DNA of 64,000 bases. Origin: an uncultured Sterolibacterium sp. (GTDB lineage: Bacteria; Pseudomonadota; Gammaproteobacteria; Burkholderiales; Rhodocyclaceae). A program made the translations under genes and the position numbers. The notes beneath the pieces were generated by a model, which had not been told where the DNA came from, did not search any database, and saw only the letters and a program-made list of their open reading frames with translations. This document shows, piece after piece, positions 4,023 to 64,000 of the stretch. The number at the start of each line of letters is the position of its first letter. Positions within the stretch are counted from its first letter, which is position 1. The DNA lies in NCBI GenBank assembly GCA_903904605.1, contig CAIVDC010000135.1, positions 7,173-71,172 of the forward strand. Reading direction: 5' to 3'.

Positions 4023-4850
4023 ATGGATGAGATACATATCGTCTTCGTTCAGGAAGCGCGCGAACAGATCGCCGCGCTGGAAGCCGGACTGATGGCGATC
4101 GAACAGGGCGACCGCGACCCCGAGACAATCAACGCCATCTTCCGCGCCGCGCACACCATCAAGGGCGGCGCCGGCGTCGTCGAACTGGGCTCGATCGAGA
4201 CTTTCACCCACTCGATGGAGAACGCGCTCGACCGCGTGAGAAACGGCGAACTCGAACTGACGCCGGCACTGATCCTGCTGTTGCTCTCCTGTTGCGATCA
4301 ACTCTCGGGCCTGCTCGATGCCATCGAAGGCGGCGGCAGCGGCGACGAACCGGCAATAGCGACGCGCAGCCAGGCGCTTACGGAGGAGCTCAAGGCCTAT
4401 CTCGGCGCCGGGGTCGCGCAGACCACCGCCGCCTTGGCCACGGAGTCGGCCGATAGCGTGGAAAGCTCCGGCGGCGGCAAGGTCGCCACCGATACCTGGC
4501 ACATCTCGGTGCGCTTCGGCCCGGGCGTGCTGAGGCAAGGCATGGACCCGCAGGCATTCCTGCGCCACCTCTTGACCCTGGGCGAGATCGCCCACATCAC
4601 CACGCTGTTCGATGCCATGCCGGCCGCGGCGGAGATGGATCCGGAGTCCTGCTATCTCGGCTTCGAGATCGGTTTCCGGAGCCATGCCGAGAAGACCGCC
4701 ATCGAGCGCGTCTTCGACTTCGTCAAGGACGACTGCGAGCTGCATATCCTGCCGCCGAACAGCAAACTGGACGACTACCTCAAGCTGATCGGGGACTGCC
4801 CGAGGAGAACATGCGCCTGGGCGAAATCCTGGTCAAGAGCGGCGCACTGA
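4023..4850 (+). CDS. cheA: CheA histidine kinase, N-terminal fragment (Hpt/P1 domain plus linker domain), ending in an out-of-frame tail
   Basis: The Hpt phosphorylation site is FRAAHTIKGGAG. The last 17 codons or so (CPRRTCAWAKSWSRAAH) look like frameshift read-through. The ORF overlaps the next ORF by 40 nt in another frame. Confidence 0.75.
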   Translation: MDEIHIVFVQEAREQIAALEAGLMAIEQGDRDPETINAIFRAAHTIKGGAGVVELGSIETFTHSMENALDRVRNGELELTPALILLLLSCCDQLSGLLDAIEGGGSGDEPAIATRSQALTEELKAYLGAGVAQTTAALATESADSVESSGGGKVATDTWHISVRFGPGVLRQGMDPQAFLRHLLTLGEIAHITTLFDAMPAAAEMDPESCYLGFEIGFRSHAEKTAIERVFDFVKDDCELHILPPNSKLDDYLKLIGDCPRRTCAWAKSWSRAAH

Positions 4851-10460: not shown

Positions 10461-11060
10461 ATGACATCCATAAATAGCGCCCGGCTGTCCGCCAGGGAAA
10501 TCGAAAACACAGCGCTCAACATCAATCCGGGCGGCTGGGCGGTGGAGCGCGAGCGGCCCATCGTCACCCTGCTCGGTTCCTGCGTCGCCGTCTGCCTGTT
10601 CGAAGCGACGCTGAAACTGGCAGGCATGAACCATTTCCTGCTGCCCAGCCGCGGCGAAGGCCGCCATGCCGATACCGACGTGGTGCTGGCCGGGGACTAC
10701 GCCATGGAAGTGCTGGTCAATGCCCTGCTCGGGCAGGGCGCCCGCAAGGAAAACCTGATCGCCAAGGCCTTCGGCGGCGGCACCATCGTCAGTGGCATCA
10801 AAATGGCGATCGGCGAGCGCAACGCCGAGTTCGCCGTCGAATGGCTGGCGCGGGAGGGGATTCCCCTGGTCGCCTCGGATTTCGGCGGGGCCTGGTCGCG
10901 CAAGGTGATCTGCGTCCCGGCCACGGGCGACGTCTATTGCCGCCGCATGCCGATCACGCAGTCGGTCGTCGATCGGGTAATCGAAGGCGAGGCAAACCAC
11001 CTGCAATCGCTGAGCAAGCCGAAGGAGACGAGACCGCAGTTGTTCATTCGTTCGGTTTGA
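10461..11060 (+). CDS. cheD: Chemoreceptor glutamine deamidase CheD
   Basis: 199 aa. CheD signatures LLGSCVAVCL and GMNHFLLP are present. It is the last gene of the che cluster. Confidence 0.85.
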   Translation: MTSINSARLSAREIENTALNINPGGWAVERERPIVTLLGSCVAVCLFEATLKLAGMNHFLLPSRGEGRHADTDVVLAGDYAMEVLVNALLGQGARKENLIAKAFGGGTIVSGIKMAIGERNAEFAVEWLAREGIPLVASDFGGAWSRKVICVPATGDVYCRRMPITQSVVDRVIEGEANHLQSLSKPKETRPQLFIRSV

Positions 11061-11117
11061 TCCGGCGGTCCGGGAACGAAAGGCCCGGTCGAGCCGCCGA
11101 CGCGGGGACGCTGCCGG

Positions 11118-11681
11118 CTACTTCTTGCCCTTTTCTTCGGCCGGGGGCTTGACGTTGGGGAACTGGAAGCCGGCGAGCAGGTTGCGCGTCTGGCCCTGGA
11201 GCTGTTCCTGCATCTGCTGGAACAGCGTCTGGCTCTGCTCCATGTAGGCGCTCATCATGTTCTGCATCGCCGGCCCCTGGAAATTGAGGAACTGCGCCCA
11301 GAGATCGTTGGAGGGCACCGCCTTGTCGCCATAGAGCGTGCGGGCCTGATCCTTGAGCTTGGCCTGCATGCCGCTGAAGGCCTTGATGTTGCCTTCCAGA
11401 TACTTGCCCATCATGCCCTGCATGGCATTGCCGTAGAAGCGGATCATCTGCGACAACAGGTCGCTGGTGAACATCGGCGAACCGCCCGCCTCTTCCTCGA
11501 GGATGATCTGCATCAGGATGCTGCGCGTCAGGTCCTCGCCGCTCTTGGCGTCTACGACCTGGAACTCCTCCTGGTCGAGGACCAGCCCCTTGACATCGAC
11601 CAGCGTGATGTAGGTACTGGTCCTGGTGTCGTAGAGACGGCGGTTCGGATATTTCTTGATCAGTCTCGACTTTTCGGCCAT
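11118..11681 (-). CDS. phaR: Polyhydroxyalkanoate synthesis repressor PhaR
   Basis: 187 aa. The N-terminus IKKYPNRRLYDTRTSTYITL is the hallmark of PhaR. The gene is adjacent to phaB and phaC. Confidence 0.9.
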   Translation of the reverse strand: MAEKSRLIKKYPNRRLYDTRTSTYITLVDVKGLVLDQEEFQVVDAKSGEDLTRSILMQIILEEEAGGSPMFTSDLLSQMIRFYGNAMQGMMGKYLEGNIKAFSGMQAKLKDQARTLYGDKAVPSNDLWAQFLNFQGPAMQNMMSAYMEQSQTLFQQMQEQLQGQTRNLLAGFQFPNVKPPAEEKGKK

Positions 11682-34860: not shown

Positions 34861-34861
34861 A

Positions 34862-35179
34862 ATGGCATCGACCCTGTGGCGGTACCGATGGCTGGTCGGG
34901 GTCGTTTTGTTCGCCGTCTATGGACTTTCCAGGGCCGGTGAAGCCGATGAGCTTGGACAGGGGCGCGAAATATATCGCGACGCCTGCGCCAGCTGCCATG
35001 GCAACGAGATGATGAATCCCGGTCTGGCGTTTGATCTGCGAAAATTCCCCAAGGGGGATCCCGAGCGTTTCCGGAATTCAGTCCTGAACGGCAAGGGGCA
35101 AGGGATGCCCGCCCTGAAGGGACAACTGTCTGCGGAAGACATCGAGGCCCTGTGGGCCTATGTGAAGAGCGGCGGTTGA
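34862..35179 (+). CDS. Small periplasmic monohaem c-type cytochrome
   Basis: The start is at M32 of the track ORF (MASTLWRY), 1 nt after the stop of the ThDP enzyme. It has a signal peptide and a CASCHG haem motif. Confidence 0.75.
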   Translation: MASTLWRYRWLVGVVLFAVYGLSRAGEADELGQGREIYRDACASCHGNEMMNPGLAFDLRKFPKGDPERFRNSVLNGKGQGMPALKGQLSAEDIEALWAYVKSGG

Positions 35180-35209
35180 GGTTCTCCTTTGTCGCGAAGG
35201 GCTGGATTC

Positions 35210-35238
35210 TTGACAAATTGGGGTGTTATAATTATCAA
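35210..35238 (+). promoter_or_regulatory. Putative promoter of the collagen-like lipoprotein gene (TTGACA-N17-TATCAA)
   Basis: A perfect -35 TTGACA lies at 35210-35215. The -10 candidate TATCAA lies at 35233-35238. A TATAAT at 35227-35232 is too close, at 11 nt spacing. Confidence 0.3.
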
Positions 35239-35318
35239 CTGGTTGGAATGAATCCCGGCCCACCTCGATTTTTTGTAGTTGTTTTGCCTCACTCCTTATC
35301 GATAAAGGGAAATATAAA

Positions 35319-35603
35319 ATGAAACAGTCTCTGCTCGTAGCTGCATTGGTTGCCCTGGCTGTTACAGCCTGCGGCAAGAAAGAAACCCCCCCGCCCGCCC
35401 CGGCTCCGGCTCCGGTTGAGGCTCCTGCTCCTGCCGCGGCCCCGGCCCCGGCCGCTGAAGCTCCGGCTGGTGCTACTGGTGCTACCGGTGCCACTGGCGC
35501 CTCCGGTGCTCCGGGTGCCACTGGTGCCACGGGCGCCACTGGTGCCACCGGCGCTGCCGGCGCTCCTGCTGCCGAGCCGAAGAAGGAAGAGCCCAAGAAG
35601 TAA
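35319..35603 (+). CDS. Small lipoprotein with a Pro/Ala-rich linker and collagen-like Gly-X-Y repeats
   Basis: 94 aa. It has the lipobox LAVTAC, the linker ETPPPAPAPAPVEAPAPAAAPAPAA, 11 consecutive G-X-Y triplets (GATGATGATGASGAPGATGATGATGATGAAGAP) and a KKEEPKK tail. A strong terminator follows. Confidence 0.8.
   Translation: MKQSLLVAALVALAVTACGKKETPPPAPAPAPVEAPAPAAAPAPAAEAPAGATGATGATGASGAPGATGATGATGATGAAGAPAAEPKKEEPKK
35469..35567 (+). repeat. In-frame 9-nt tandem repeat (GGTGCYACY)n encoding the collagen-like triplets
   Basis: The tandem periodicity is directly visible in the sequence and lies inside the lipoprotein CDS. Confidence 0.85.
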
Positions 35604-35618
35604 TCGGGTTCTCCTGCG

Positions 35619-35650
35619 AAAAAAAGCCGGCCCGAAGGCCGGCTTTTTTT
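35619..35650. terminator. Bidirectional rho-independent terminator
   Basis: AAAAAAA-GCCGGCC-cgaa-GGCCGGC-TTTTTTT lies between the convergent lipoprotein and MBL-hydrolase genes. Confidence 0.9.
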
Positions 35651-35659
35651 CGCCCGGTT

Positions 35660-56443: not shown

Positions 56444-57337
56444 CTAAGCAGCCGCTACGCGCTCGCAGAACCGGGCGCGAAAGATCAGCCGCCGCCGCGC
56501 AGGGCTATCCGAAAAGGCGGTGCGCTCGTGCAGCACATTGTTGCAGACGAGGCCCATGCCGGCCTCCAGACGCCCCTGAAAGGTCCATGGCGTGCCTCGC
56601 TTGAGGATCTGCTCGAGACAGGCAAGAGCGGCTCGCGTCGCAGCATCCTCCTTCCACGCGATGCTTCTGCTGCGCGCCGTATATCGCATGTGCAGGAAAC
56701 CCTGGCGGTCGACCGAAAACACCGGGCCCGCCTGTTCGGGCCGGGCGACTTCGCCAACGCCTTCTGCCGCGCTGCGCGCCGGGATGGTCATGACATCCGG
56801 TTGCGAGAGCGCGCGGATGAATTCAGGATTCTCGTCGCGCAACAACAGATACGCCAGCTCGTGGTCTAGCAGCCGGGTCTCTCCTCCGCATTCTGCGCTC
56901 TCGACGCAATGGAGAATCATGCCGCGCACCGTCCGTTCCGGGGCATTGTAGTATCCGTCGCTATGCCAATTGATCGCGCGGTCGGTATAGGGTATGAATT
57001 CCCGACGCGTTCCGGCCCCAGACAGTGTCAATGCCGAGATGCCATCCTCGTCCGAGAGATAATTGCCATCCAGGGTCTTCAGACCCAGTTGCAGACCCAG
57101 CAGACGCGGAATTTCCTTGTCCTCTGCGTGATTGCCGCCGGCATAGATCGCCATGTTGGCGCAGGCGCAACGTTCCAGCAGGGCCAAGCGTTCCTTGTCG
57201 GTCAGCGCCTTCGGATCCTTGACTTCGACGATCAGATCGGCCAGGGAACCGGGTGCCGTGGCGAGCTTTATTTTTCGCCAGACGGCATAGGCGGCAGGAT
57301 TGTCGAGATCGAAGGGAGAATGGTCCGACATGCTCAA
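56444..57337 (-). CDS. TauD/TfdA-family Fe(II)/2-oxoglutarate dioxygenase-like protein
   Basis: 297 aa. It has an HxD iron motif in INWHSDGYY, a distal His in NNVLHER and a C-terminal Arg (RARF). Confidence 0.65.
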   Translation of the reverse strand: MSMSDHSPFDLDNPAAYAVWRKIKLATAPGSLADLIVEVKDPKALTDKERLALLERCACANMAIYAGGNHAEDKEIPRLLGLQLGLKTLDGNYLSDEDGISALTLSGAGTRREFIPYTDRAINWHSDGYYNAPERTVRGMILHCVESAECGGETRLLDHELAYLLLRDENPEFIRALSQPDVMTIPARSAAEGVGEVARPEQAGPVFSVDRQGFLHMRYTARSRSIAWKEDAATRAALACLEQILKRGTPWTFQGRLEAGMGLVCNNVLHERTAFSDSPARRRLIFRARFCERVAAA

Positions 57338-57971: not shown

Positions 57972-58148
57972 TCATTCACCACCGACGTCGCCAAGGAACG
58001 CCGAAATCAGCATGTTGCGAAAGTCGGCGGGGCCCTCTGCGACCCGGAATTGATCCGCCAGTTCGCGCCTGCCGACCGCTCCAGGGCCTTCCAGGTGCCC
58101 TCGCTCGACCGGCCGGTCCACCTCGAGAGGCGTGTCCGTCGGCGTCAC
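57972..58148 (-). CDS. Possible unannotated 58-codon ORF (below the ORF-track size cut-off)
   Basis: The GTG start at 58148 overlaps the stop of the upstream GGDEF gene (GGTGA). The ORF fills the 196-nt gap and has GC-rich third positions. It translates to MTPTDTPLEVDRPVERGHLEGPGAVGRRELADQFRVAEGPADFRNMLISAFLGDVGGE. Confidence 0.25.
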   Translation of the reverse strand: MTPTDTPLEVDRPVERGHLEGPGAVGRRELADQFRVAEGPADFRNMLISAFLGDVGGE

Positions 58149-60088
58149 CCGTCATAGAACCGAACCGAATTGTGCCCTTCCTTCCGCGCCTGAAACATCG
58201 CCGTGACCGCCCGGGTGAAGATGTCGTCCTGGCTGGCTTCGAGATCGCCGAACAGCGCCACACCAACGCTTGCCGTGCAGCGAAGCTCGACAGCAGTTCC
58301 CCCCGTTTCAGGAGACTGGACGGTCAACACATAGAGGCCGGACAACGCGCCGCGGATTTTTTCGGCAATGCTGCCGGCTTGTGCAAGCGACACGGACTTA
58401 TCCGCATCCAGTTCGCTGATCATCACTACGAATTCTCCACGGCCGAAGCGCGCCACGGTATCCATATCGCGTATGCAGGCTTTCAGTCGATCGGCGGTTT
58501 CGATCAAGAGCAGATCGACAACGGTATGCCCGTATAGGTCGCTTATCGCCTTGAACTGGTCGAGAACGAGAAACATGATGGCGCCGCGGCAGCCACTGCG
58601 CTTGCCGGCCGCAATGACCAGGCTAAATCGGTCGTTGAACAGACGACGTTTCGGCAAGTTGGTGAGCGCGTCGTAGAACAGCAGGTGACGCGCTTGTTCT
58701 GCCTTCTTCTTCCGCTCGGTGACATCTCGGAAAAGGATCGCGGCGCCGCTCGCCTCGCCCTCTCCCCTGATGGTCGCGACCCTGTATTCCACTTGAAAAG
58801 CCGTTCCGTCCTTGCGCCAGTAGACATCCTTGTTGAACTGGCGCTCCGTTCCATCGCTACCGGTCCCGGGACGGCTCAGGGTGCTGTGCAGCTTGCAGTC
58901 GGAAGCCGGATATCCGATGCCGTCGGCATGGAAGTGGTTCCGATGGGCGAGTATGTGGAAATTGGTACCGACAACCTCGTCTTCTCGCCACCCCAGTATC
59001 CGCTGCGCGGCTGGATTGATGAAATCCACGAGCCCCTCGGCGTCAACGCCGCAGATGCCTTCGCTGGCGGAATTGAGCAGCACTTCATATCGGTGTGCAT
59101 GCAGCTGCGACTCTGACCGCGCGGCTTCCAGGATCTTCTGCGTCCGCTGCTGCCTGAAATACAGCAAGCCGAGCATGACCACGAACACCAGAGTCATATT
59201 CCAGGCGATCAGGGTCTGGATGACCCAGGGACGAAGGTAGTCGTCGCGCGCCAAGCCGACCACCACCACCAACGGATAGTGCTGCGTGCGGCTGAAGGCG
59301 GTGGTCCGCGCCACGTTGTCGACGGAATAGACGAAGTCCATAACCCCGGACATTTCTCCGGAGAAAATGCGCGCGGCGAAAGCCGAACTGACTGGTCGGT
59401 TGATCATTCCTGCGATCTCCGGCCGGCGCAGCATCAGGCGGGCGGTATCGCTGCGGCGCAGCGAAATCACTCCTTTTGCGCCAATCTCGGGACCATCTAT
59501 CAAGCGTTGCATGTGCGAGAGATCCAGAACGGCATTGACCGCCCCGAGAAGATGCCCATCCGTCCCGCGGATCGGCACGGCGACGACAACGGTCCGCGCG
59601 GCCGGGCCGTTGCCGACAATGACTTCCGATATGGCGAGGGCCTTGGCGGGATCGTCTTTCAGCGAACGAAACCATTCGCGATCGCTGAAATTGAGCCTCG
59701 TTGCCTCAGCGTTTCCCGCGCCTAAAATGTAGTCGCCCCCGGCCGTGAACACCTGGTAGTTGGAAATCTCGGGGAAACGGGTCAGATGGGACGCCATGAG
59801 CGATTCGATCTCGTCATGCCTCTGCTTCGTCAGGCCGCCGGAGAAATCTCCTGATTTCAGCGAGCTCGAGACACCAAGCATGTAGCTCTCGGCCCGACCG
59901 ATCGTTTCTTCGACGGCCAGGCGAATGGCTTCGGCGAGATTGTCGGCGTTCGTTTCTGCTTCACGGTGAAAACGTTCGTAGCTCAGGGCAGATAAGCCGA
60001 CGTCCAGCAAGAGGAATGCCACCAAGCCCGCAACAAAAATAGTCGACTGCCAATGCGCTTTCCGTAATGCGGTGGGGGAAGATGGCAT
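58145..60088 (-). CDS. Membrane sensor with a periplasmic Cache-like domain, a PAS domain and a degenerate GGDEF domain
   Basis: 647 aa. It has two TM helices flanking a periplasmic region of about 270 aa, then a PAS region (LLNSASEGICGVD). The GGDEF domain has a GRGEF active-site motif instead of GG(D/E)EF, while an RxxD (RDMD) is retained 5 residues upstream. Confidence 0.85.
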   Translation of the reverse strand: MPSSPTALRKAHWQSTIFVAGLVAFLLLDVGLSALSYERFHREAETNADNLAEAIRLAVEETIGRAESYMLGVSSSLKSGDFSGGLTKQRHDEIESLMASHLTRFPEISNYQVFTAGGDYILGAGNAEATRLNFSDREWFRSLKDDPAKALAISEVIVGNGPAARTVVVAVPIRGTDGHLLGAVNAVLDLSHMQRLIDGPEIGAKGVISLRRSDTARLMLRRPEIAGMINRPVSSAFAARIFSGEMSGVMDFVYSVDNVARTTAFSRTQHYPLVVVVGLARDDYLRPWVIQTLIAWNMTLVFVVMLGLLYFRQQRTQKILEAARSESQLHAHRYEVLLNSASEGICGVDAEGLVDFINPAAQRILGWREDEVVGTNFHILAHRNHFHADGIGYPASDCKLHSTLSRPGTGSDGTERQFNKDVYWRKDGTAFQVEYRVATIRGEGEASGAAILFRDVTERKKKAEQARHLLFYDALTNLPKRRLFNDRFSLVIAAGKRSGCRGAIMFLVLDQFKAISDLYGHTVVDLLLIETADRLKACIRDMDTVARFGRGEFVVMISELDADKSVSLAQAGSIAEKIRGALSGLYVLTVQSPETGGTAVELRCTASVGVALFGDLEASQDDIFTRAVTAMFQARKEGHNSVRFYDG

Positions 60089-60602: not shown

Positions 60603-61082
60603 TCAGGTTTTTATCAGATAAAACTCGTGAGTACCGCGTCCGGCCTCGACCGCTGCCTCCAGTTCGATGGAGCCGCCCTTGGCCCAGGCGCGGACGTCGG
60701 CGGGCGTGCCGGGACAGTTGCTGATGAGCAGCAATACCTCGCCCCCGTGCATCGCATCGAGCAGTTTTTTCGCCTCGACGATGGGACCGGGACAGGTGAC
60801 GCCGCGCATGTCCAGCGTGACATTGACATGACGTTTCTCGCCGCCGCCCTTGCGTATGGTGAATGCGGTCTTGCCTCCCTCCCGTTTCTCGGTCAGAAGA
60901 ACTTCGTTGCCGGTGACCCGAGCCCAGGCGGCAAGGTCATCGGGCGTGCCGGGACAGTCGGAGATGAGCACCAGGGTCTGTCCTGGCAGAAGGTCATCGA
61001 CCACGCGCTTGGCGCCGACCAGCGGCGCCGGGCAGGTCATGCCTGAGAAGTCGAGTGTCGCCACAACGGTTTCCATAGTCAT
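60603..61082 (-). CDS. Tandem two-domain TusA/SirA-like sulfur carrier
   Basis: 159 aa. It has two repeats, each with the TusA Cys motif: FSGMTCPAPLVGAKR and MRGVTCPGPIVEAKK. Confidence 0.8.
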   Translation of the reverse strand: MTMETVVATLDFSGMTCPAPLVGAKRVVDDLLPGQTLVLISDCPGTPDDLAAWARVTGNEVLLTEKREGGKTAFTIRKGGGEKRHVNVTLDMRGVTCPGPIVEAKKLLDAMHGGEVLLLISNCPGTPADVRAWAKGGSIELEAAVEAGRGTHEFYLIKT

Positions 61083-61092
61083 CCTCTATAGA

Positions 61093-61692
61093 TTAAGTCG
61101 AACCGACGGCGTTTGCCGTCCGGTGCGGAACAAAAATGCCACAGCCGAGTTTGCGCGCCTCGCCCAAGCCCAGTTGCTGAATGACGAGGGAATGCGCCGC
61201 CGTCAGACCATGCAGCATCAGCCTGAAGCCGCGGATCTCCCCGCCCTCAGCCGTCTTGACCTGGGCCCGCCCGCAGACCAGGCTGCAGTTGACGCCGATT
61301 TCGCCTAGGCGTGCGGTGCACAGGGCGAGGAACTCTTCCTCCCCGGCGCAGGCGAATACGACACAGGGGGAATACTGTGCCGATGAAGCAATAAGAGCGC
61401 GCTGACGCGCTTCGCCGATAGCGATGGCGCCGCCCAGATCCAGTTGCTGGCCACTCAAGGCAAGGGCTGCCGCGACCCGATGCTGCGGCAGGCGCAGCGT
61501 CAGCCGCGCACGGTGGCTCAGGTAGAGGGTGCCGTCGCCGGCACTGGTTCCGGCGATCGGCAGAATGCCGGCCGCGGGCTCATCCTCCAGCCACGGCAGC
61601 ATTGTCCGCAAGGACTGCCACAAGAGCGTCGCATAATCCGGCCTGACGGCACTGCCGGAGAGCGGGAAAACCAAGTCGATCGCATCTTTCAT
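61093..61692 (-). CDS. Cas6/Cmx6-like RAMP-family protein (orphan, no CRISPR or other cas genes in the window)
   Basis: The start is at M17 of the track ORF (MKDAIDLVFPLSG) and overlaps the upstream stop as ATGA. It is about 200 aa. The N-terminus resembles subtype MYXAN Cas6. The C-terminus carries a glycine-rich loop matching GhGxxxxxGhG (GLGEARKLGCG), followed by IFVP. Confidence 0.55.
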   Translation of the reverse strand: MKDAIDLVFPLSGSAVRPDYATLLWQSLRTMLPWLEDEPAAGILPIAGTSAGDGTLYLSHRARLTLRLPQHRVAAALALSGQQLDLGGAIAIGEARQRALIASSAQYSPCVVFACAGEEEFLALCTARLGEIGVNCSLVCGRAQVKTAEGGEIRGFRLMLHGLTAAHSLVIQQLGLGEARKLGCGIFVPHRTANAVGST

Positions 61693-61907
61693 GCCGGCTT
61701 CTCCTGTGTTTGCGACCACTCGACCATGGCCCGCCCCCAACGCTCGGCGCTGCCCGGATCGATGTCAAAGACGGTGAAGCGGCTGCCCTCGCGAATGCGC
61801 ACCCGCATGAGCGGCATGCCGCCGGATTCATAGATGATCTGCTGCAGTTCGATTCCTTGCTTGCCGATGGGCAAGATGAACTTGTCCAGGCTGATAATAT
61901 TATCCAC
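61689..61907 (-). CDS. Hypothetical 72-aa protein, first gene of the operon divergent from dsrA
   Basis: It is an ORF coupled by ATGA to the Cas6-like gene. I recognise no family. Confidence 0.5.
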   Translation of the reverse strand: MDNIISLDKFILPIGKQGIELQQIIYESGGMPLMRVRIREGSRFTVFDIDPGSAERWGRAMVEWSQTQEKPA

Positions 61908-62117
61908 TGAGTCTCCTTCTCCACGCTAGACTATCGCATCTTGGCCTCCCTGCCAGCCATCACCGCGTTGGCGTGCCAGGTCATACTCCATTCGGGTAGC
62001 TATGAGTACCCCCACAAGGGGGGACAGACTACCTTCCACGGGTATGGTTTGTGCACCGCACAGATCCTTAACATTCGACAAGCCTTATATACTTTCAAAA
62101 CAAAGGAGACAATTCCC

Positions 62118-63413
62118 ATGGCCAAGAAACCTCACGCCACGCCGAATCTTGACCAGCTCGAGAGCGGTCCCTGGCCCAGCTTCGTTACCGGCCTGAAGCG
62201 TCTGGCCGAAGACAAGGATTCTGTTGTCGATCTGCTCGGCCATCTCGAGCATTCCTACCAGACCCGCAAGGGTTACTGGAAGGGCGGCACGGTCGGCGTC
62301 ATCGGCTACGGCGGCGGCGTCATCCCGCGCTTCACCGAGATCAAGGACGAGCACAACAAGCCCGTGTTTCCCGATGCCGCCGAGTTCCATACCCTGCGCA
62401 TCATGCCGCCCGGCGGCATGCACTACGACACCAAGACTCTGCGCCAGTTCTGCGACATCTGGGAACGGCACGGCACCGGCCTGATCGCCTTTCACGGCCA
62501 GTCGGGCGACATCATGTTCCAGGGCGTCACCTCCGAGAACACCCAGAAGGCATTCGACGAAATCAACGAGATGGGTTTCGACATGGGCGGCGCCGGTCCT
62601 TCGGTGCGCACGTCAATGTCGTGCGTCGGCGCTGCGCGCTGCGAGCAGTCCTGCTTCGACGAAGCGCGGGCGCTGCGATCCATGGTCAATGCCAACCTCG
62701 ACGATCTGCACCGTCCGGCCCTGCCCTACAAGTTCAAGTTCAAGTTCTCCGGCTGCTCCAACGACTGCATGAATTCCATACAGCGCTCGGACATGGCGGT
62801 AATCGGCACCTGGCGCGACAACATGCGCACCGATGAGGTACTGGCGAAAAAGTGGTTCGCCAAGCATGGCATGAACGAAATGGTCAATGACGTCATTGCC
62901 CGCTGCCCGACCAAGGCTATCCAGTTGAAGGAGATCAAGGCGGTGAAGTCCGGCGCCAGCATTTCCAGCGTCGCGGTCAGCGACAGCCTGGCCCTGGAAA
63001 TCGACAACAAGGATTGCGTTCGCTGCATGCACTGCATCAATGTCATGACCGGAGCCCTGGCCTCCGGCACCGACAAGGGCGCGACCATCCTCGTCGGCGG
63101 CAAGCGGACGCTCAAGATCGGCGATCTGATGGGCACCGTGGCCGTTCCATTCTTCAGACTGCAGAACGATGAGGACTACGAACAGTTGGTCGAACTGGGG
63201 CAGAAGATCATCGAGTTCTTTGCCGAGAACGCCTTGGAACACGAGCGCACCGGCGAGATGATCGAGCGCATCGGTCTGGTCAACTTCCTCGAGGGCCTTG
63301 ATCTCGACATCGATGCCAACATGGTATCGGCGCCGCGCACCAATCCCTACGTGCGCATGGACGGCTGGGACGAAGAGGTTGCCAAGATCAACGCCAAGAA
63401 GGCCGCCGCGTAA
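62118..63413 (+). CDS. dsrA: Dissimilatory sulfite reductase alpha subunit
   Basis: The start is at M60 of the track ORF (MAKKPHATPNLDQLESGPWPSF), after AAAGGAG. DsrA blocks are present (YWKGGTVGVIGYGGG), along with sirohaem/FeS Cys clusters (CVGAARCEQSC, SGCSNDC) and a ferredoxin-like insert (CVRCMHC). Confidence 0.92.
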   Translation: MAKKPHATPNLDQLESGPWPSFVTGLKRLAEDKDSVVDLLGHLEHSYQTRKGYWKGGTVGVIGYGGGVIPRFTEIKDEHNKPVFPDAAEFHTLRIMPPGGMHYDTKTLRQFCDIWERHGTGLIAFHGQSGDIMFQGVTSENTQKAFDEINEMGFDMGGAGPSVRTSMSCVGAARCEQSCFDEARALRSMVNANLDDLHRPALPYKFKFKFSGCSNDCMNSIQRSDMAVIGTWRDNMRTDEVLAKKWFAKHGMNEMVNDVIARCPTKAIQLKEIKAVKSGASISSVAVSDSLALEIDNKDCVRCMHCINVMTGALASGTDKGATILVGGKRTLKIGDLMGTVAVPFFRLQNDEDYEQLVELGQKIIEFFAENALEHERTGEMIERIGLVNFLEGLDLDIDANMVSAPRTNPYVRMDGWDEEVAKINAKKAAA

Positions 63414-63446: not shown

Positions 63447-64000
63447 ATGGCTCAAGCTCAAATCCGTCGCGCGATCGAATCCGGCGTACCGGACCACATG
63501 CCCCTGCTGCACCCGAAGCTGGCGAAGAACTACGGCAACTGGAAGTACCATGACCGGCCCCGCCCCGGCGTCTTGCACCATGTATCGCATACGGGCGACG
63601 AGGTGTGGACGGTGCGCGCCGGCACGCAGCGGCAGATGGACGTATTCACCATTCGCACCCTGTGCGACATCGCCGACCAGTTTGCAGAAGGACACGTCCG
63701 CTTCACCATCCGATCCAACATCGAATTCATGGTCAGCAGCGAAGCCCAGGTCGCGCCGCTGATCGCTGCTCTGGGGAAGCACGGCTTCCCGGTCGGCGGC
63801 ACCGGCAATTCAATTTCGATGATCTCGCACACCCAGGGCTGGCTGCATTGCGACATTCCCGGCACCGACGCATCGGGCGTGGTCAAGTCGCTGATGGACG
63901 AACTGCATGAGGAGTTCATCCGCGAGGAGATGCCCAACCGCGTGCACATATCCACCTCCTGCTGCGAAATCAACTGCGGCGGCCAGGCCGACATCGCCAT
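63447..64000 (+). CDS. dsrB: Dissimilatory sulfite reductase beta subunit (N-terminal 184 codons; runs off the window)
   Basis: Not in the ORF track because there is no stop in the window. The ATG lies 33 nt after the dsrA stop. It translates to MAQAQIRRAIESGVPDHMPLLHPKLAKNYGNWKYH...HTQGWLHCDIPGTDASG...STSCCEINCGGQADIA, which are typical DsrB blocks. Confidence 0.88.
   Translation, partial: MAQAQIRRAIESGVPDHMPLLHPKLAKNYGNWKYHDRPRPGVLHHVSHTGDEVWTVRAGTQRQMDVFTIRTLCDIADQFAEGHVRFTIRSNIEFMVSSEAQVAPLIAALGKHGFPVGGTGNSISMISHTQGWLHCDIPGTDASGVVKSLMDELHEEFIREEMPNRVHISTSCCEINCGGQADIA

Follow-up and report, generated by a model that had tools for sequence, protein, structure and literature searches.

Cas6 is the enzyme that ordinarily cuts CRISPR RNA (crRNA). 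In the type I-MYXAN locus on plasmid pSYLB of Synechocystis sp. PCC 6714, which served as our positive reference, a Cmx6-type cas6 heads the gene series cas6-cas3-cmx8-cas8/7-cas5-cas4/1-cas2, and the locus has an array of 12 repeats of 36 nt each. Known exaptations of CRISPR-Cas components comprise CRISPR-associated transposons (CASTs), the type I-E system with a STAND module in Streptomyces, HRAMP and type IV systems (PMC8730458). Here we describe a Cas6-like gene in a 64-kb stretch of DNA from an uncultured Sterolibacterium sp. (contig CAIVDC010000135.1; the whole 64,000-nt stretch is referred to below as the window). The Cas6-fold protein that it encodes has left CRISPR-Cas and is fixed, together with a small DUF6967 protein, in an accessory operon of the oxidative Dsr system. 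A sequence-only reading of the window had proposed that a Cas6/Cmx6 fold outside CRISPR-Cas was co-opted in a sulfur-oxidation locus; profile searches, a predicted structure and synteny across 80 genomes support that proposal.

Identity of the Cas6-like protein

The product of the gene was a true Cas6-fold protein of the Cmx6 family. Its open reading frame (ORF) opened with the ATG at 61692, and the protein began MKDAIDLVFPLSGSAV and had the C-terminal end GLGEARKLGCGIFVPH. A mechanical ORF list gave an extended start, a TTG at 61740 (215 aa); homologue alignments start from the ATG, and 199 aa is for that reason the supported length. The protein matched PF09559 with 161.2 bits (E = 3.8e-47; Pfam cutoff 26.7) and the NCBIfam model TIGR02807 (cas6_cmx6) with 135.7 bits, above the equivalog cutoff of 98.85, and was matched by six Cas6 models in PADLOC. 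A profile of 17 homologues gave a full-length match of 110 bits to one solved relative, the Cas6 of a type I-B CAST Cascade (8fcj_B). The AlphaFold2 (AF2) model, built from 77 sequences (pLDDT 94.1, pTM 0.89), contained two ferredoxin-like (RRM) domains in the Cas6 arrangement. When it was compared with the PDB by Foldseek, ranks 1-38 were taken by Cas6, Cse3 or Cas6e only, and the best matches, 8fcu_B (E = 1.5e-17) and 8fcj_B, reached TM scores of 0.88-0.89 at a root-mean-square deviation of about 2 Å. The glycine-rich loop, G175-L-G177-EARKL-G183-C-G185, was an exact fit to the pattern GhGxxxxxGhG, and its glycines (G175, G177, G183 and G185) were 100% conserved in 81 dsr-linked sequences. 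The sequence-only reading had anticipated much of this: the 199-aa ORF that it placed at 61093-61692 was the same minus-strand ATG-to-stop frame, the GhGxxxxxGhG fit of the C terminus was indeed exact, with all glycines invariant from G175 to G185, and the suspected resemblance to Cmx6 was borne out by PF09559 and TIGR02807 scores above their cutoffs. It had also proposed a hidden Markov model (HMM) search and a comparison of predicted structures, both of which were strongly positive for Cas6. In the literature searched, we found no definition of a catalytic residue for the Cmx6 type.

Absence of CRISPR-Cas around the gene

No CRISPR array was found anywhere in the 64-kb window by Tandem Repeats Finder (TRF) or by direct-repeat and k-mer chain scans. 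When PADLOC was run on 51 ORFs covering the window, Cas6 was the sole Cas family matched, by this one protein, and no other cas family was found in the window. To set the gene beside its relatives, one genome per species (GTDB) was scanned with the conserved C-terminal peptide of the family as query, yielding 106 relatives, of which 80 were retained. Searches of these loci for cas genes and arrays covered up to 10 kb of flanking DNA on either side, as far as the contig extended. The seven Cas proteins of the Synechocystis reference were used as tblastn queries against the window and the 80 loci (1.37 Mb); cas6 was matched in 81 of 81, and the remaining six gave no match in any. Nor was a CRISPR array found across the 80 related loci (1.3 Mb). 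The repeat scans, PADLOC and tblastn together upheld the earlier statement that the 64 kb contain neither an array nor cas1, cas2, cas3, cas5 or cas7.

Periodic repeats in two of the related loci, L051 and L056, were rejected as CRISPR arrays because there was no unique sequence between copies: both were whole-unit tandem duplications of 81-82 nt without unique spacers. The L051 array extended from 4140 to 4765, and the L056 array (10965-11154) started about 10 nt past the stop of the DsrC-like gene. The only periodic repeat in the window itself had a periodicity of 9 nt (35397-35573; about nine or more copies of GGTGCCACY-like units) and sat in a stretch, 34861-35659, where the ORF caller had called no gene.

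A conserved gene module divergent from dsrAB

In Betaproteobacteria, the Cas6-like gene was a constant member of an operon that is conserved as an accessory to the oxidative Dsr system. Nearly all of the 80 loci were betaproteobacterial (Rhodocyclaceae, Sterolibacterium, Sulfuritalea, Burkholderiales, Hydrogenophaga, Rhodoferax, Polaromonas, Rubrivivax, Sideroxydans and Gallionellaceae), and at least two of the carriers, Hydrogenophaga aromaticivorans D2P1 and Hydrogenophaga sp. ZJX-1, are cultured. The module ran in the order DUF6967, Cas6-like gene, tandem TusA (variable), DsrC-like gene, a 204-aa orphan and TauD, divergent from dsrABEFHCMKLJOP, and the synteny of the Cas6-like gene was maintained down to 35% identity and across several betaproteobacterial families. 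When only loci having enough flanking DNA were counted, DUF6967 lay immediately 5' of the Cas6-like gene in 77 of 79 loci, and dsrA was divergent and no more than 4 kb away in 65 of 68. On the 3' side of the Cas6-like gene there was a DsrC-like gene in 63 of 70 loci, TusA in 47 of 70, and one or the other in all 70. Farther downstream, a homologue of the 204-aa orphan stood on the same strand in 62 of 63 loci, as did a TauD-family dioxygenase in 60 of 63. The conserved unit is larger than first noted, since it adds the orphan and TauD, and the closest partner of the Cas6-like gene is the 72-aa DUF6967 rather than TusA.

The DUF6967 stop and the Cas6-like start overlapped or were at most 30 nt apart in 55 of 78 loci. 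Sixteen loci had the same 4-nt overlap as the window, where the Cas6-like ATG overlaps the TGA of the 72-aa ORF as ATGA. In the window, the Cas6-like stop was followed after 10 nt by the TusA gene, and that after 13 nt by the DsrC-like gene. The ATGA coupling, a TusA gene 10 nt downstream, a DsrC-like gene next to it and a divergent dsrA had all been described correctly from the sequence alone, and a co-occurrence check proposed at the same time had a consistent outcome: throughout the 80 species genomes the family tracked dsrAB, TusA and the DsrC-like gene, and never cas genes or arrays.

On contigs of several branches annotated with Pfam, dsrABEFHCMKLJOP lay on one strand (seen in full in L093, L094 and L098) and the module on the other, with one or two copies of the DsrC-like gene, and metagenome contigs of divergent branches showed the same synteny. 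Distant relatives carried partial sets. One had the arrangement Pyr_redox_2, DUF6967, Cas6-like gene, DsrC-like gene and orphan; L097 had a shuffled order of TauD, a 62-aa ORF, the Cas6-like gene and the DsrC-like gene; and in another a 59-aa ORF overlapped the Cas6-like gene, with neither dsr nor cas genes nearby. Judging by these partial sets, the small protein and the Cas6-like protein form the deepest conserved core of the module.

Relation to CRISPR-linked Cmx6 proteins

An exhaustive HMMER search of 1.84 billion representatives returned 1,071 clusters at E ≤ 1e-3, of which 499 passed E ≤ 1e-10 and 50 passed E ≤ 1e-30. The C-terminal signature GLGxxRxLGCGhFhPHK was common to the whole family. 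CRISPR-linked members on cyanobacterial plasmids were only 26-31% identical to the Cas6-like protein, and in a neighbour-joining tree of 229 sequences these cyanobacterial proteins fell outside the dsr-linked clade. The smallest clade with all dsr-linked sequences also took in 136 representatives of unknown context, so the limit of the non-CRISPR clade is not fixed. Seven of the 136 were sampled: five (P0115, P0297, P0367, P0286 and P0264) had the whole module or part of it, P0335 had a small ORF before the Cas6-like gene in a context that was neither dsr nor cas, and the P0311 contig was too short.

Residues D6, F9, D19, L24, R67, G93, E118, F121, S168, Q172, G175, G177, R180, G183, C184, G185, F187 and P189 were conserved in dsr-linked and CRISPR-linked proteins; among the dsr-linked proteins, R67 was conserved at 100% and R180 at 95%. 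This equal conservation of residues shared with crRNA-binding relatives suggests that the ancestral binding surface is still under selection. Other residues were specific to the dsr-linked clade, namely His190 (100%), His161 (93%), W34, R61 and G141, with Ala, Gly or Tyr at position 190 and Ser or Asn at position 161 in the CRISPR-linked proteins. Source databases label the dsr-linked proteins "type I-MYXAN CRISPR-associated protein Cas6/Cmx6", a label that wrongly implies a CRISPR system in the carriers and can inflate CRISPR counts in surveys of metagenome-assembled genomes.

A further Cas6/Cmx6 gene without adjacent cas genes was seen on plasmid pGMOR1 of Gloeobacter morelensis (L087, 9971-10762), where its neighbours were PAPS-reductase-family proteins, a cupin and DNA methyltransferases. 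Given these surroundings, it may represent a second kind of solo Cmx6, independent of the dsr-linked one, that perhaps belongs to an island for DNA modification or defence.

Partner proteins

Pfam recognised DUF6967 alone in the 72-aa protein, whose core, RVRIRE-G-RFTVFDID, was invariant. Its AF2 model (pLDDT 93) had a ββββα fold with the topology of a PUR repeat (DSSP: E3-11, E18-25, E33-40, E43-49, H51-67), and its 14 best PDB matches in Foldseek were all PUR repeats (TM 0.52-0.63, about 0.62; probability 0.94-1.0). PUR repeats, each with a ββββα topology, pair up as dimers, and the resulting domain binds single-stranded DNA or RNA. The predicted likeness is a lead that hints at single-stranded nucleic-acid binding by DUF6967, and not an assignment. 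The small ORFs before the Cas6-like gene in L089 (1156-1335, 59 aa) and L097 (2460-2648, 62 aa) were similar to one another, with the shared motif G-x-F-F-x-MDVRPPFPDTPExWE, and matched the DUF6967 core weakly in hhalign (E 0.016 and 0.06, probability <3%).

The tandem TusA kept the CPxP cysteine in each domain, as CPAP at residue 17 and CPGP at residue 97. The window DsrC-like protein had the C terminus ...GCKVAGLPQPYGKGGY (...GKGGY). In DsrC, the second conserved cysteine lies about 11 residues before the penultimate one, on the C-terminal arm. All 70 module DsrC-like copies lacked the penultimate C-terminal cysteine and had GKGGY at the end, and 50 of them lacked both cysteines; the genuine dsrC of the same loci had both in 61 of 61. 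With its C-terminal cysteine lost throughout, the module protein is not a sulfur-carrying DsrC/TusE, and cysteine-less DsrC-like proteins are classed as putative regulators. The earlier description of the locus as a sulfur-carrier operon stood as far as the tandem TusA is concerned, and fell for the DsrC-like protein. A second, longer DsrC-family gene (about 121 aa) often came after the first, as in L093 (11543-11908), L094 (11931-12299) and several other loci; its product was 33-39% identical to the window DsrC-like protein, and the gene was absent from the window. The 204-aa orphan had no Pfam, NCBIfam or PDB sequence match, and the TauD-like protein is, by its sequence, a generic Fe(II)/2-oxoglutarate dioxygenase.

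Coordinates of the module, its surroundings and the cis-element are collected in Table 1. The dCache-PAS-GGDEF gene was a lineage-specific insertion between the DsrC-like gene and the orphan and does not belong to the conserved set; in the other loci examined, the 204-aa ORF followed 0.1-2 kb after the Cas6-like gene and no such gene intervened. Among the 51 window ORFs, PADLOC also matched one to MzaA (E 1.4e-43) and one to mad2 (E 3.8e-21).

Table 1. Features in and around the Cas6-like gene module, in window coordinates
Feature	Position	Strand	Basis
TauD-family Fe(II)/2-oxoglutarate dioxygenase, last conserved module gene	56444..57337	-	PF02668, 66.5 bits
Orphan protein, 204 aa	57334..57948	-	Conserved in module
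dCache-PAS-GGDEF diguanylate cyclase gene	58145..60088	-	Pfam GGDEF, PAS, dCache_1
DsrC-like protein, 110 aa	60257..60589	-	PF04358, 111 bits; full-length also TIGR03342
Tandem TusA, two domains	60603..61082	-	PF01206, 121 bits, two stretches
Cas6-like gene, Cmx6 / PF09559 family, 199 aa	61093..61692	-	Profile, fold, shared context
DUF6967 protein, 72 aa	61689..61907	-	PF22295, 93 bits
Composite cis-element, about 57 nt, dsrA/DUF6967 intergenic	61957..62013	-	Conserved, nearly gapless
dsrA, sulfite reductase alpha subunit	62118..63413	+	NIR_SIR and NIR_SIR_ferr domains
dsrB, 5' part, ends at window edge	63447..64000	+	tblastn matches of 71-95% identity adjoining dsrA in loci

A cis-element shared by two sulfur operons

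The core of the element between dsrA and DUF6967, CTACCC-N4-GGNNTA at 61984-61999, was the single match in the window against 0.01 expected. It was found in operon orientation in 59 of 78 loci, in many of them about 90 nt ahead of the DUF6967 start, and its distance to dsrA was more variable than its distance to DUF6967. The same two-unit element, TACCC-N4-GGGyTA-N8-CACCC-N4-CGGnnATAGACG, recurred 100-190 nt upstream of a separate tusA-dsrE2 pair, oriented to the gene, in 14 of 20 Burkholderiales loci. This pair lay about 6-8 kb downstream of the Cas6-like gene on the opposite strand in L045, L063, L077 and 11 other Burkholderiales loci, and its gene content was read in L098 (14078-14811). A common oriented motif at tusA-dsrE2 and at the DUF6967/Cas6-like operon suggests that the two form one regulon. 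The first unit could fold into a hairpin with 5 bp in the stem, one bulge and a loop of 4 nt (often GNRA), a shape resembling the hairpin of the genuine Cmx6-type CRISPR repeat of the Synechocystis reference (GAUGCC-GUAA-GGCGUU).

Possible roles in sulfur metabolism

A lone Cas6-like protein without CRISPR, in a fixed cluster at dsrAB, appears to have another job, in sulfur metabolism. The explanation that we favour, with a probability of roughly 0.45, is that the Cas6-like protein and DUF6967 form a regulatory pair for sulfur-trafficking operons, with a specific nucleic acid as its binding partner. We prefer it because the residues of crRNA binders stay under selection, the partner has the predicted fold of a nucleic-acid binder, and a regulon-type motif is present in the absence of a classical transcription factor, none being recognisable in the module by Pfam or NCBIfam annotation. 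The two proteins would form a complex on their target, most likely RNA, with contacts made by the retained glycine-rich loop and arginines of Cas6 and by the Arg-rich sheet of the PUR-like partner. This complex would then set how strongly sulfur-trafficking operons are expressed; a coupling to the sulfur status of the cell might come from TusA and the cysteine-less DsrC-like protein. The best candidate target is the oriented motif in the leaders of the module operon and of tusA-dsrE2, which might be read as RNA or as DNA. A narrower form of the proposal, which we regard as rather doubtful, is a CRISPR-independent ribonucleoprotein (RNP) switch in which the Cas6-like protein and its PUR-like partner would recognise, and perhaps cut, a short stem-loop in the leader RNA of their own operon and of tusA-dsrE2, their activity depending on the persulfide state of TusA and of the cysteine-less DsrC-like protein.

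Several results weigh against a regulatory nucleic-acid-binding pair. The median isoelectric point (pI) of 7.9 (net charge about +1) compares with 9.3-9.4 (+6 to +7) in the CRISPR-linked references, the similarity of DUF6967 to PUR repeats is weak (E 0.09-0.35, identity 10-13%), and the functionally annotated neighbours are all sulfur-transfer or redox proteins, which fit a role without nucleic acid equally well. Covariation was tested on a 39-sequence alignment with two mutually exclusive hairpin sets. The first set was not clearly above shuffles (13/500 and 38/500); in the second, the strong stem never varied and only one pair swapped clade-wide. The remaining helices did not rise above shuffled controls, and the tests lent no support to an RNA structure. 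The second unit of the element repeats the first directly at a spacing of about 23 nt, and pairing is not kept in it, which favours recognition as DNA; an array of DNA operators is no less likely than an RNA leader. A known RNA family in the operon or intergenic region was rejected, as Rfam at E ≤ 1 gave a single chance-level match within dsrA, and a sigma-70 promoter scan was uninformative (one match against 0.6 expected).

Near-neutral charge in place of the basic character of the CRISPR-linked relatives, covariation tests that yielded no supported RNA partner, and annotated neighbours that are without exception sulfur carriers or redox enzymes would also suit a protein in which the Cas6 fold is reused as a scaffold, chaperone or ligand-binding subunit for sulfur trafficking or DsrAB maturation, nucleic-acid binding having been lost. 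The Cas6-like protein and DUF6967 might then serve as a docking site for TusA, the DsrC-like protein or DsrAB; alternatively, His161, His190 and Cys184 might bind a metal, a cofactor or a sulfur species. Ligand-binding proteins of many kinds have reused the double ferredoxin-like fold, and the two clade-specific histidines are near the conserved Cys184 in sequence; Cys184 is, however, ancestral to the whole family and therefore no adaptation to sulfur chemistry. A loss of nucleic-acid binding also sits poorly with a glycine-rich loop, R67 and R180 that are as conserved as in crRNA-binding relatives, with a partner whose predicted fold is typical of nucleic-acid binders, and with a pairing of Cas6-like protein and small ORF that persists where no dsr genes were seen nearby, and we consider this explanation somewhat unlikely. 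More improbable is an RNA (e.g. tRNA) modification pathway, in which the choice of RNA would fall to the Cas6-like and PUR-like proteins, the supply of sulfur to TusA and a hydroxylation to the TauD-family dioxygenase. The TusA-TusBCD-TusE-MnmA relay makes 2-thiouridine, and here an RNA-binding fold co-occurs with a TusE/DsrC-family protein and a TusA that has an active cysteine in both domains, beside an Fe(II)/2-oxoglutarate dioxygenase in 60 of 63 loci. The DsrC/TusE-like protein, however, lacks the relay cysteine in 70 of 70 loci, about a third of loci have the operon without TusA, no thiouridylase or other RNA-modifying enzyme is among the annotated genes, and the close association with dsrAB speaks for a function in energy metabolism.

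Least credible of all, and in our view very improbable, is the idea of a normal cas6, moved from its original locus, whose product processes crRNA in trans for a CRISPR-Cas system encoded at another place in the genome. The NCBI equivalog model does name the protein type I-MYXAN Cas6/Cmx6, and Cas6 is supplied in trans in some CRISPR systems (PMC12669027), but displacement can hardly account for a dsr-linked context that recurs in 80 species from several families, at identities as low as 35%. No locus had a cas gene or array within its flanks of up to 10 kb, the constant pairing with DUF6967 is absent from the genuine I-MYXAN operon, and the CRISPR-linked Cmx6 proteins, at about 29% identity, lie outside a clade that is marked by residue changes of its own and by loss of charge.

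The case would be one of a widespread lone Cas6 domesticated in core chemolithotrophic metabolism and would mean that the RAMP fold is recruitable alone; should the RNP switch prove true, it would be the first Cas6 endoribonuclease domesticated to regulate an energy-metabolism pathway. We know of no well-characterised regulator of the oxidative dsr genes in these bacteria, and the module is a concrete candidate for one. It defines an accessory set of five to six genes, at least three of them without a known function, beside dsrAB in, for example, Sulfuritalea, Sterolibacterium, Hydrogenophaga, Rhodoferax, Sideroxydans and Gallionellaceae, and the cis-element ties it to tusA-dsrE2. The cultured Hydrogenophaga carriers make the role of the module directly testable.

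Comparison with known systems

The family of the protein is known, and what is new is its conserved functional context outside CRISPR. The searchable full-text literature, which included the main reviews of Cas families and exaptations and left most subscription journals outside its coverage, yielded no account of dsr or sulfur loci that contain Cas6, Cmx6 or DUF6967; within that literature, the remark in the sequence-only reading that no such exaptation was known to have been characterised still holds. Like the DsrC/TusE family, the 110-aa neighbour matches PF04358 and TIGR03342 over its full length; unlike them it is without the relay cysteine, and on its sequence it would be neither a DsrAB substrate nor a TusE-type relay. 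DUF6967 resembles the PUR repeat of Pur-alpha (PURA) in size and in its predicted ββββα topology, but at 10-13% identity the two have no sequence similarity and membership is not established.

With Cmx6-type Cas6 proteins (chain B of 8fcj and 8fcu, and that of Synechocystis pSYLB), the Cas6-like protein shares full-length homology, a two-RRM fold, a length of about 200 aa, the C-terminal signature GLGxxRxLGCGhFhP and residues R67, R180, Q172 and S168. Unlike in the Synechocystis pSYLB locus, the array, cas3, cmx8, cas7, cas5, cas4/1 and cas2 are absent near the dsr-linked gene, which is instead preceded by DUF6967 (77/79 loci) within the dsr accessory operon. As in the known exaptations, a Cas-derived protein here stands outside adaptive immunity and without adaptation genes (PMC8730458). 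Those systems, however, retain a multi-subunit effector (Cas5, Cas7 and Cas8) and belong to defence or mobile-element biology, whereas the protein described here is a lone Cas6 in a chromosomal energy-metabolism operon.

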